Shown: positions 40,797 through 46,217 of the stretch, piece by piece
Position numbering within the stretch: position 1 is the first letter of the stretch
Layout of the letters: each line of letters begins with the position of its first letter
DNA from: Escherichia coli
GTDB taxonomy: Bacteria; Pseudomonadota; Gammaproteobacteria; Enterobacterales; Enterobacteriaceae
Length of the DNA stretch: 64,000 nt
Assembly (NCBI RefSeq): GCF_003334355.1
Contig: NZ_QOWP01000024.1
Strand: one strand, 5' to 3'
Translations under genes and position numbers: made by a program
Notes under the pieces: model-generated
Databases searched by the model: none
Told to the model about the DNA's origin: nothing
Seen by the model: only the letters and a program-made list of their open reading frames with translations

Positions 40797-43700
40797 ATGA
40801 ATAGAATCTATCGCGTGATATGGAATTGCACTCTACAGGTATTTCAGGCCTGCTCGGAATTAACTCGCAGGGCAGGTAAAACATCGACGGTTAATTTGCG
40901 TAAATCCTCTGGACTGACAACGAAATTCAGTAGATTGACGCTGGGTGTTTTGCTGGCACTAAGCGGTTCAGCGTCTGGTGCAAGTCTGGAAGTTGATAAT
41001 GATCAGATTACCAATATTGATACTGATGTTGCTTATGATGCCTACCTGGTTGGCTGGTATGGCACTGGAGTGCTTAATATTTTGGCTGGCGGTAATGCCT
41101 CCTTAACCACTATTACTACCAGCGTCATTGGCGCTAATGAGGACTCAGAGGGCACCGTTAATGTTTTGGGTGGCACCTGGCGATTGTATGATAGCGGAAA
41201 TAATGCAAGGCCTTTAAATGTGGGTCAATCCGGAACGGGGACGCTGAATATTAAACAGAAGGGTCACGTCGATGGAGGCTATTTAAGATTAGGTTCTTCG
41301 ACAGGAGGCGTCGGGACGGTCAATGTTGAGGGAGAGGACTCTGTTCTGACGACCGAATTATTCGAAATAGGTAGCTATGGCACAGGTTCATTAAATATTA
41401 CGGATAAGGGTTACGTCACGAGTTCAATCGTCGCCATTTTAGGCTATCAGGCGGGCAGTAATGGCCAGGTTGTCGTTGAAAAGGGTGGCGAGTGGCTAAT
41501 AAAAAATAATGATTCCTCAATTGAATTTCAAATTGGTAATCAAGGAACTGGGGAGGCGACTATTCGCGAGGGGGGGTTGGTTACGGCTGAAAATACGATT
41601 ATCGGTGGCAATGCCACCGGTATCGGAACCCTGAATGTGCAGGATCAAGACTCTGTCATCACGGTACGCAGACTCTATAATGGATATTTCGATAATGGCA
41701 CAGTCAATATTTCCAATAATGGACTGATTAATAACAAAGAATATTCATTGGTGGGCGTTCAGGACGGTTCCCACGGTGTCGTCAACGTGACCGATAAAGG
41801 GCATTGGAATTTCCTCGGAACGGGCGAAGCTTTCCGCTATATCTATATCGGTGATGCTGGCGACGGTGAACTTAATGTCTCGAGTGAAGGCAAAGTAGAT
41901 TCGGGAATTATCACTGCGGGGATGAAAGAAACAGGCACAGGCAACATTACTGTTAAGGATAAGAACTCCGTTATCACTAATCTCGGAACTAATCTTGGTT
42001 ATGACGGCCACGGCGAAATGAATATCAGTAATCAGGGGCTTGTTGTCAGCAACGGAGGAAGTTCACTCGGTTATGGAGAAACCGGCGTCGGGAATGTCAG
42101 CATCACCACGGGGGGAATGTGGGAGGTCAATAAGAATGTCTATACCACCATTGGTGTTGCGGGCGTCGGAAACCTCAATATTAGCGATGGCGGTAAGTTC
42201 GTATCGCAAAATATTACTTTTTTGGGCGATAAAGCAAGCGGTATCGGCACACTGAACCTGATGGATGCGACATCATCGTTCGATACTGTGGGTATCAATG
42301 TCGGTAATTTTGGTAGCGGTATCGTAAATGTCAGTAATGGTGCCACCCTTAATTCAACGGGCTATGGATTTATCGGAGGAAATGCCTCCGGTAAGGGGAT
42401 AGTTAATATTTCAACGGACAGTCTCTGGAATTTAAAGACATCATCTACTAACGCACAATTGCTACAGGTCGGTGTATTAGGCACGGGTGAACTGAATATT
42501 ACCACCGGAGGTATAGTTAAAGCGCGTGATACACAGATAGCTCTCAATGACAAAAGTAAGGGCGACGTGAGGGTGGATGGGCAGAACTCTCTTCTTGAAA
42601 CATTCAATATGTACGTAGGGACATCTGGTACGGGTACGTTAACCCTGACGAATAACGGTACGCTGAATGTCGAAGGTGGAGAAGTTTACTTAGGTGTTTT
42701 TGAGCCTGCTGTAGGAACGCTAAACATTGGTGCTGCTCACGGTGAGGCGGCGGCAGATGCCGGATTTATCACCAATGCGACGAAAGTGGAGTTTGGTCTT
42801 GGCGAAGGCGTTTTTGTCTTTAATCATACCAATAACAGTGATGCCGGCTACCAGGTCGATATGCTGATTACAGGTGACGATAAAGACGGAAAAGTGATCC
42901 ATGATGCAGGCCATACGGTGTTCAATGCAGGGAATACTTATAGCGGTAAAACGCTGGTCAATGACGGCCTCCTGACCATTGCGTCTCATACGGCAGATGG
43001 GGTAACGGGCATGGGGTCGAGTGAAGTAACCATTGCAAACCCCGGTACGCTCGACATTCTCGCATCAACGAACAGTGCAGGAGATTACACGCTGACCAAT
43101 GCGCTCAAAGGCGATGGCTTGATGCGAGTGCAGCTGTCATCCTCCGACAAGATGTTTGGCTTTACCCATGCAACAGGGACTGAATTCGCCGGTGTTGCCC
43201 AACTGAAAGACAGTACCTTCACTCTGGAACGCGACAACACCGCTGCGCTTACTCACGCGATGTTGCAGTCTGACAGTGAAAATACCACATCGGTAAAAGT
43301 TGGAGAGCAATCCATTGGTGGACTGGCCATGAATGGAGGTACCATCATTTTCGATACGGATATTCCTGCTGCGACGCTCGCGGAGGGATATATCAGCGTC
43401 GATACGCTGGTTGTCGGCGCGGGTGACTACACCTGGAAAGGCCGTAACTATCAGGTAAACGGGACGGGCGACGTGCTTATCGACGTGCCTAAACCGTGGA
43501 ATGATCCCATGGCGAATAACCCTCTGACGACGCTCAATTTGCTGGAACACGACGATAGCCATGTCGGCGTTCAACTGGTGAAGGCGCAAACGGTTATTGG
43601 GTCGGGTGGCTCATTAACGTTACGTGATTTACAGGGCGACGAGGTGGAAGCGGACAAAACGTTACACATTGCGCAAAACGGAACGGTGGTCGCCGAGGGT

Positions 43701-46217: not shown

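Follow-up and report, generated by a model that had tools for sequence, protein, structure and literature searches.

An intact allele of the Escherichia coli autotransporter gene yneO and a poly-G frameshift hotspot that probably underlies its recurrent loss

Several described systems stand close to the subject of this work, the autotransporter gene yneO (ECSE_1600 in strain SE11), which is carried in an intact form at positions 40797-46217 of a 64,000-nucleotide stretch of Escherichia coli DNA (contig NZ_QOWP01000024.1; the whole stretch is hereafter called the window). AIDA-I, the adhesin for diffuse adherence of diarrhoeagenic E. coli, is plasmid-borne and contains repeats of 19 amino acids (aa); IcsA, MisL, ShdA and YfaL/EhaC share with YneO a module formed by an autochaperone and a beta-barrel; and Ag43 (the product of flu) and TibA, both self-associating autotransporters, are surface beta-helix proteins of E. 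coli whose expression is on or off at the level of the population. The switching of Ag43 is epigenetic and involves Dam and OxyR, whereas the on/off state of YneO is set by frameshifts. Poly-C/G phase variation has been described for the Neisseria autotransporters NalP, MspA and AutB, as has homopolymer microevolution in Bordetella pertussis (PMC3723659, PMC5118866, PMC1891110); the length of an intragenic homopolymer decides there, as in YneO, whether the autotransporter is produced, and varies among isolates. We give a probability of roughly 80% to the reading that the window carries an intact yneO allele and that a run of eight G residues (G8) within it is a mutational hotspot leading to recurrent, mostly one-way loss, rather than a maintained phase-variation device.

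The yneO gene of K-12 and ECSE_1600 of SE11 are the same gene as that of the window, at the same locus between lsrK and hipBA and with a match to the family model over the full length (for the window, NCBIfam NF011422, ECSE_1600 family autotransporter, with 4174.8 bits against a cutoff of 2335 and positions 1-1806 of 1806 covered). According to the list of open reading frames (ORFs) and the translation, a single ORF runs on the plus strand from an ATG through 1806 codons to one terminal stop, its product beginning with MNRIYRVIWN and ending in GVKYSW; there is no other long ORF in the region, and one of this length at 47-50% GC is far beyond chance. Beyond the order lsrK-autotransporter-hipBA, which is that of K-12, the genome of K-12 J53 is collinear with the window at 99.8% identity across 17.4 kb, and the collinearity extends from ydfJ to yddB with the exception of a 6.3-kb insertion at 12391-18674. 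What the ORF encodes is YneO, a chromosomal autotransporter of E. coli, in intact form; K-12 has it as the pseudogene fragments ydeK and ydeU, and in a gene-name table (PMC10782963) the K-12 locus appears under 'AIDA-I family autotransporter YneO', ydeK/ydeU being given as synonyms. An earlier note, made from the letters of the window, had described an uninterrupted 1806-aa ORF from an extended signal peptide to a barrel ending in Trp, placed beside hipBA like ydeK/ydeU (yneO) in K-12, and the translation, the domain scans and the synteny agree with it on each of these points.

The same note had held the K-12 copy to be disrupted, and the alignment has located the lesion. The 5.4-kb counterpart in K-12 J53, annotated as 'ECSE_1600 family autotransporter, frameshifted', is 99.9% identical to the gene of the window and differs from it by four single-nucleotide polymorphisms (SNPs) and one extra G in K-12, where the G7 run at 44751-44757 (tract 2; Table 1) has become G8, so that only the window is in frame and K-12 has no identical ORF. 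Relative to the K-12 haplotype, the SNPs are G to A at 41692 and 44979 and C to T at 45071 and 45953, two of them synonymous and two non-synonymous. Because of the extra G, the K-12 product is truncated after 1325 aa, which corresponds to YdeK, the remainder being YdeU. Tract lengths were counted with queries of 81-83 nucleotides with identical flanks in 5,426 complete E. coli genomes, and for tract 2 the exact matches amounted to 1165 with G7 and 389 with G8; the eight G8 genomes sampled were all laboratory derivatives of K-12, and the G8 total also includes at least 13 natural isolates that belong to another allele lineage.

It is at a second run, tract 1, that most of the natural variation resides. 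The window contains three runs of at least seven G or C residues, all three being G and all lying within the autotransporter gene. At tract 1, 2370 complete genomes have the in-frame G8, 433 have G9 and 349 have G7, which places approximately 20-25% of the carriers off-length, versus at most 2% at control homopolymers: an A8 run in ydeM (59012-59019) and the G7 run of tract 3 in the same gene (41570-41576) each showed an indel in no more than one of 60 evenly spaced records, tract 3 being interrupted (GGGTGGG) in several lineages. In the natural isolates sampled whose gene is longer or shorter by +1, -1 or +2, the indel was always in tract 1, as exemplified by YZMc17-1, 8GC and BS15R-A (G9), ETEC1717 (G7) and SY3626_hybrid (G10). 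A tree of 17 alleles places off-length tract-1 alleles beside G8 sisters in three clades and yields at least five independent tract-1 events (G7, G9 and G10), in addition to the K-12 event at tract 2; G7, G8, G9 and G10 occur on haplotypes separated by 0-5 SNPs, and two B1-type clades likewise contain G9 alleles beside G8 sisters. No report of this polymorphism of the YneO tracts was found in the open-access literature, which does not include the subscription surveys of E. coli autotransporters.

The position of the two tracts determines the outcome. Both (codons 1277-1280 and 1318-1321) precede the autochaperone (residues 1332-1438), and a frameshift in either stops translation before the autochaperone and the barrel, which are lost, and therefore nothing can reach the surface. 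The frame is open only when tract 1 and tract 2 have 8 and 7 residues, respectively (or after a change of three). A compensating double frameshift (-1 at tract 1 and +1 at tract 2) was considered and rejected, as the 41 shifted codons hold two stops, the first at codon 1303; nor do the natural isolates with G7 at tract 1 and G8 at tract 2 qualify as compensated alleles, since they form a single lineage (Res13-Lact-ER02-39, 25-07338, 2013C-4991) that carries additional lesions. This lineage has a sub-haplotype distinct from that of K-12, with a cluster of SNPs at gene positions 2321-2626; the further lesions are an insertion sequence (IS), IS2, in Res13-Lact-ER02-39 and a G6-to-G5 change at gene position ~1319 in 2013C-4991. 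Other lineages have lost the frame differently: in O157, 8 bp are inserted near 44779; in other genomes, the gene is interrupted by IS1, IS2 or ISEc20 or has suffered deletions; and O26 adds deletions of 12 and 232 bp to a tract-1 G9. The 1351-aa representative of the cluster of truncated products ends in SEGGNRGMY, which corresponds to a shift at the G6 run at 44829-44834.

Could these differences in tract length be homopolymer errors of long-read sequencing, the gene being truly intact or K-12-like in most strains? Several K-12 laboratory assemblies, one of them from Menlo Park, do deviate from G8/G8, with G7 at tract 1 or G9 at tract 2, and up to 8 of ~390 K-12 assemblies (~2%), in which the true state of tract 1 is G8, have G7 there. 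Against this stand the two control runs, which are stable in the same set of genomes, the absence of K-12 from the 60 G9 records listed, and the sharing of the same allele by clone mates. Furthermore, exact-protein look-ups on one N-terminal haplotype, counted in 'blocks' (an undefined unit subject to sampling bias), returned 8535 blocks for the 1806-aa ON form (G8/G7), 7529 for the 1289-aa product of tract-1 G9, 926 for the 1302-aa product of tract-1 G7 and 9117 for the 1325-aa K-12 type (tract-2 G8), with the truncated products mostly on contigs of 20-200 kb, typical of short-read drafts, and with Logan-only assemblies in addition, one of which encodes a 1302-aa protein ending in exactly the peptide predicted for the tract-1 G7 frameshift. 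G9 is also present at tract 1 of O26:H11 11368, the genome of which we take to have been Sanger-sequenced. Given the truncated products in draft and Logan assemblies and the G9 of this strain, the length variation of tract 1 is real, and an explanation by sequencing error for most strains is highly improbable.

Within K-12 itself, deviations from G8/G8 have been observed in the TAKARA laboratory strain HST04 (NZ_CP013952.1), whose K-12 allele, annotated as intact (WP_001310821.1), carries G7 at tract 2, in one C600 assembly (NZ_CM132660.1) with G9 at tract 2 and in the Menlo Park assembly of MG1655 (NZ_CP009685.1) with G7 at tract 1. They may be either real slippage in K-12 lineages or homopolymer errors. 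Reports from evolution experiments on ydeK/yneO (PMC4350175, PMC7858067) were also considered as evidence of slippage and discarded, because they describe a large indel and apparent IS insertions, with no tract changes.

As for its origin, the most diverged E. coli alleles, those of M11957 and SCU-102, have an interruption in tract 1 (GGGTGGTG), and the site reads GTG AGT GGT GAA in outgroup orthologs with 83-84% DNA identity. From both observations it follows that G8 is derived within E. coli, where the run arose via two synonymous T-to-G changes. Being derived and absent from the outgroup orthologs examined, G8 is better read as a hotspot than as a maintained switch. The orthologs in question, one in an unclassified Enterobacteriaceae genome and one in a Logan assembly, are intact, identical in length to YneO and adjoin hipBA. 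In these outgroup loci, hipBA lies downstream and a small gene of the Pmp3 family separates the autotransporter from hipB, while the upstream neighbour is an operon resembling that of xanthine dehydrogenase and not lsr.

The alternative that deserves most attention is that the two poly-G runs constitute a slipped-strand phase-variation (contingency) switch, reversibly turning the gene ON and OFF in the manner of the Neisseria poly-C/G tracts. The homopolymers lie within the coding region just ahead of the export module, tract 1 was created by two synonymous substitutions, G7 to G10 are found in several clades and on almost identical haplotypes, one protein haplotype has ON and G9-OFF in about equal numbers, and HST04, with its K-12 allele annotated as intact, could be a revertant. 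In a shuffle of synonymous codons, three or more G runs of at least seven are modestly enriched (P = 0.016), but a run of at least eight is not significantly so (P = 0.13). Unlike the Neisseria and Bordetella tracts, which are maintained and switch at high frequency, the YneO tract is short (G8), restricted to some lineages and missing from diverged E. coli alleles and from the outgroup orthologs; it is stable in ~98% of the K-12 assemblies, since the ~390 K-12-derived assemblies keep G8/G8 and the ~2% that deviate are possibly sequencing errors; and the OFF alleles decay further, gathering second and third lesions. In O26, strains from several sources all have G9, which indicates stable inheritance there. 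A reversible switch is for these reasons unlikely. Equally doubtful is its evolutionary corollary, by which YneO would be a natural slipped-strand ON/OFF locus where G8 owes its fixation to the reversible switching that it confers on a large surface antigen or adhesin, leaving K-12 one -1 slippage away from ON. To our knowledge, E. coli is generally thought to be devoid of homopolymer contingency genes, and slipped-strand switching in this species is said to have been demonstrated only by Torres-Cruz and van der Woude in 2003, with engineered repeats.

Several points weigh against reading the locus as an intact allele with a hotspot of one-way loss. A selected switch would also account for two of the observations, namely that ON and G9-OFF are nearly equally abundant on the same 1277-aa haplotype and that the tract originated through two synonymous changes; the look-up blocks on which the near equality is counted carry the sampling bias mentioned above. 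Independent events were counted on a gene tree, so that recombination could inflate their number, and reversions from OFF to ON are possible. Among long-read-only assemblies, a part of the tract-1 G7 calls probably reflects erroneous deletions, given that G7 is also seen there in several K-12 laboratory assemblies. On the side of the protein, the AlphaFold model of the autochaperone and the barrel is unusable, with predicted local distance difference test (pLDDT) values in the 20s and a shallow alignment, and the structural matches of the passenger have low similarity scores. Finally, the open-access literature searched contained no expression, surface-display or adhesion data for YneO, and for this reason the adhesin role rests on homology and fold.

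A further possibility would be that the ORF is no more than a silent relic: its frame would be open in this strain by chance, it would never have been expressed or been of use, and it would be heading to loss everywhere. More than half of the carriers are disrupted, B2 strains are without the gene, the promoter region is AT-rich and bound by H-NS in K-12, and no phenotype was found in the open-access literature. Nonetheless, intact alleles with a synonymous divergence (dS) of up to ~0.1 have a ratio of non-synonymous to synonymous divergence (dN/dS) of 0.11-0.19, so that YneO is under purifying selection where it is kept. A relic is also difficult to reconcile with these values persisting over synonymous divergences of up to 9%, with an intact 1806-aa ortholog of identical length in a sister taxon at 83-84% nucleotide identity and with full-length protein clusters that comprise tens of thousands of member sequences, and it is rather improbable. 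The statement of the earlier note that the copy is potentially functional is in line with the dN/dS values and with the complete set of domains, which make it a plausible, sequence-based expectation.

Its framing of the intact copy as a feature of this strain could not be kept, however. A match to the gene is present in 4,364 of the 5,426 complete genomes (~80%), of which 3,953 cover at least 80% of it; the exact length of 5421 nucleotides was found in 18 of 40 evenly spaced carriers (~45%), and six of six carriers of that length that were checked, from divergent lineages, are annotated as intact. The SE11 genome publication of 2008 (PMC2608844) already contained ECSE_1600 (1806 aa) and gave it as intact in SE11 and HS, as broken in MG1655, E24377A and O157 Sakai, and as missing from B2 strains. 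The exact protein of the window had also been deposited (OWD60859.1, and in Logan run ERR4578542; eight draft contigs) and belongs to a 90%-identity cluster of 18,868 members, the cluster of truncated proteins having 8672, while at the nucleotide level the gene of the window is at least four SNPs away from each of the complete genomes. The gene, the intact allele and the family are already known and common, and what is added here is the G8 hotspot and its population pattern.

Regarding the protein, YneO presents the sequence features of type Va secretion: an extended signal peptide region (ESPR), an autochaperone junction and a C-terminal barrel on the same polypeptide with an aromatic end. 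The signal peptide and the barrel were recognized by Pfam at residues 1-47 (PF13018) and 1525-1784 (PF03797), respectively, as the earlier note had anticipated, and TIGR01414 scores 406.7 bits on the barrel against a cutoff of 16. The autochaperone and pertactin matches together cover residues 1332-1452, with the IcsA autochaperone (3ML3) matching the region at E 2.5e-17 and the IcsA passenger construct 5KE1 aligning with residues 1195-1457. The passenger is Gly-rich (15% Gly, with 34 Gly-Gly pairs in the protein), the motifs of its N-terminal repeats are spaced by 24-26 aa or multiples thereof, TIGR04393 (T5SS/PEP-CTERM repeat) matches nine passenger stretches and PATR repeats are spread across it. 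AlphaFold gives an all-beta model for residues 55-1000, confident over ~55-650 (pLDDT mostly >90); in the model of residues 1001-1806, only ~1014-1342 are usable (beta-rich, pLDDT 70-90), and the assignment of the autochaperone and the barrel rests on sequence matches and not on the model. The sole long helix of that C-terminal model lies in the linker, at a position that fits the AIDA-I beta-domain construct 4MEE, and would plug the barrel pore. The older NCBI name 'autotransporter barrel domain-containing lipoprotein' was set aside, given that the only Cys residues (11 and 19) are within the ESPR and no lipobox was seen by eye.

The comparison with named adhesins separates the export module from the passenger. 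The earlier note had called the protein AIDA-I-type, and this holds for the translocator and junction, homologous over the C-terminal ~460 aa (4MEE matches residues 1345-1806 at E 6.1e-87), for the type Va layout and for the general class of beta-helix passengers, but not for the sequence of the passenger. The AIDA-I model NF033176 matches residues 1298-1805 only, with 355.2 bits against a cutoff of 1200; YneO has repeats of ~25 aa of the TIGR04393 type and no match to the Pfam AIDA repeat, in contrast to the 19-aa repeats of AIDA-I; and it is chromosomal, with lsrK and hipB as neighbours and no adjacent gene for a heptosyltransferase of the Aah/TibC type. Similarly, the models that contain MisL, ShdA and YfaL/EhaC (NF011841, NF011847, NF007285) match the C-terminal 330-500 aa only and, as for IcsA, the scores are far under the family cutoffs and the passengers are unrelated at the level of hidden Markov models. 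The best solved folds for the passenger are those of Ag43 and TibA (4KH3, 7KOH, 7KO9, 7KOB, 4Q1Q; Foldseek probability 1.00, E 1e-7 to 1e-4), although with template-modelling scores of 0.2-0.4, an identity of 12-15% and a YneO passenger more than twice as long. Since the named families match only the C-terminal part, and below their cutoffs, YneO is best classified from its sequence as a classical autotransporter of type Va that combines an export module like that of AIDA-I with a beta-helix passenger of its own, and not as AIDA-I itself. Many in-frame length variants appear among the protein database matches (1589, 1672 and 1692 aa, one 1589-aa form being found on 41 contigs), which suggests repeat-mediated deletions in the passenger.

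A mechanism can be proposed on this basis. Transcription would start from a sigma-70 promoter in the AT-rich spacer upstream of the gene (GC 0.33 over 40500-40899); for the K-12 spacer between yneO and lsrK, a genomic SELEX study gives this motif, together with an H-NS mark, as the constitutive promoter of yneO (PMC3946193). Because this spacer is bound by H-NS, the gene is likely silenced in the laboratory. A simple consensus scan for promoters and terminators found no more sites than in shuffled sequence, and missed the published yneO promoter motif. By what is known of the family, the ESPR signal peptide would direct the protein through Sec and slow its export, and the C-terminal 12-stranded barrel would be inserted in the outer membrane by the beta-barrel assembly machinery (BAM). 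The passenger of ~1280 aa would then be threaded out and fold from the autochaperone, in the C-to-N direction, into a long right-handed beta-helix of the kind seen in Ag43 and TibA and, by analogy, would most likely act as an adhesin or aggregation factor. Whether a strain is ON or OFF is set mainly by the short poly-G runs that immediately precede the autochaperone, with K-12 being OFF by G7 to G8 at tract 2, many natural lineages by G8 to G9, G7 or G10 at tract 1, and the remaining OFF lineages by the O157 8-bp insertion, IS insertions or deletions.

Table 1. Coordinates of the features of the yneO locus and of the insertion at 12391-18674 (positions in the window; CDS, coding sequence; PTS, phosphotransferase system)
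Feature	Coordinates	Strand	Basis
Sigma-70 promoter motif CTGACA-17-TTTAAT, ~33% GC spacer upstream of the gene	40715..40743	+	Read from sequence
Shine-Dalgarno GGAG, 7 nucleotides 5' of ATG	40786..40789	+	Read from sequence
Intact CDS, YneO/ECSE_1600 family type Va autotransporter, 1806 aa + stop	40797..46217	+	ORF list, translation, NCBIfam NF011422
ESPR, residues 1-47, hydrophobic core then to ~62	40797..40937	+	Pfam PF13018, E 1.5e-14
N-terminal passenger, residues ~83-640, ~22 rungs of ~25-aa repeat (GxGxLNI...GGxV), beta-helix	41043..42716	+	
Poly-G tract 3, G7 (GAG GGG GGG, codons 258-260), stable	41570..41576	+	Homopolymer scan
C-terminal passenger, residues ~641-1331, beta-rich, PATR repeats	42717..44789	+	Pfam PATR, model, 5KE1 match
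Poly-G tract 1, G8 (GTG GGG GGG GAA, codons 1277-1280), recurrent frameshift hotspot, G8 in frame	44627..44634	+	
Poly-G tract 2, G7 (CCT GGG GGG GCA, codons 1318-1321), K-12 lesion site (G8 there)	44751..44757	+	
Autochaperone (AC_1/pertactin-like), residues 1332-1438	44790..45110	+	PF18883, E 1.8e-26; PF03212, E 1.5e-10
G6 run (GAA GGG GGG AAA, codons 1344-1347), further frameshift site in other lineages	44829..44834	+	
Predicted linker alpha-helix, residues ~1492-1506, putative barrel-pore plug	45270..45314	+	Model, low pLDDT
Beta-barrel translocator, residues 1525-1806, C-terminus KYSW	45369..46214	+	PF03797, E 2.3e-42 (1525-1784)
GntR regulator of PTS island	12445-13143	-	
IIB of PTS island	13342-13653		
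IIC of PTS island, two overlapping ORFs	13729-14418 and 14388-15089		Profile positions 1-198 and 204-420
IIA of PTS island	15114-15428		
LamB-like porin of PTS island	15484-16884		
6-phospho-beta-glucosidase of PTS island	17175-18620		

Other observations concern the surroundings of the gene. The annotation of O26:H11 11368 gives a frameshift in the neighbouring lsrK, too. Downstream of hipA, at 48407-50029, there are a frameshifted helix-turn-helix pseudogene and the N-terminally truncated usher ydeT, both annotated in K-12, with which the window is collinear in this region. At 51127-52200, 28 of the 39 differences from K-12 in the 17.4-kb comparison are packed in ~1.1 kb over the fimbrial gene ydeQ, in what looks like a recombination patch. 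The 6.3-kb insertion, situated between marB and eamA and absent from K-12, is a PTS island of the cellobiose/beta-glucoside type, whose IIC gene, being split over two overlapping ORFs, is probably frameshifted. An Rfam scan of the whole window found nothing near the autotransporter gene, its sole match being the Hfq-binding small RNA STnc560 at 9690-9903 on the plus strand (281.9 bits), in the mgtS/mgtT region of the K-12 map.

By itself, an intact copy of YneO adds nothing to what is known of E. coli, the gene having been catalogued already. The hotspot does have practical consequences, in that annotation and pan-genome calls (present, absent or pseudogene) hinge largely on one base in a G8 run, and long-read-only assemblies need care at tract 1. 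If, against expectation, the tracts did form a switch, yneO would be a rare instance of phase variation by a homopolymer in natural E. coli, the deletion of one G in K-12 would provide a simple handle on an uncharacterised putative adhesin of 190 kDa, and HST04 may be a K-12 revertant that expresses the 1806-aa protein. Under the reading preferred here, that of a hotspot with mostly one-way loss, the locus illustrates cleanly, in a natural setting, how a mutational hotspot can result from two synonymous changes and then drive the parallel loss of a selected surface protein in A, B1 and related lineages.

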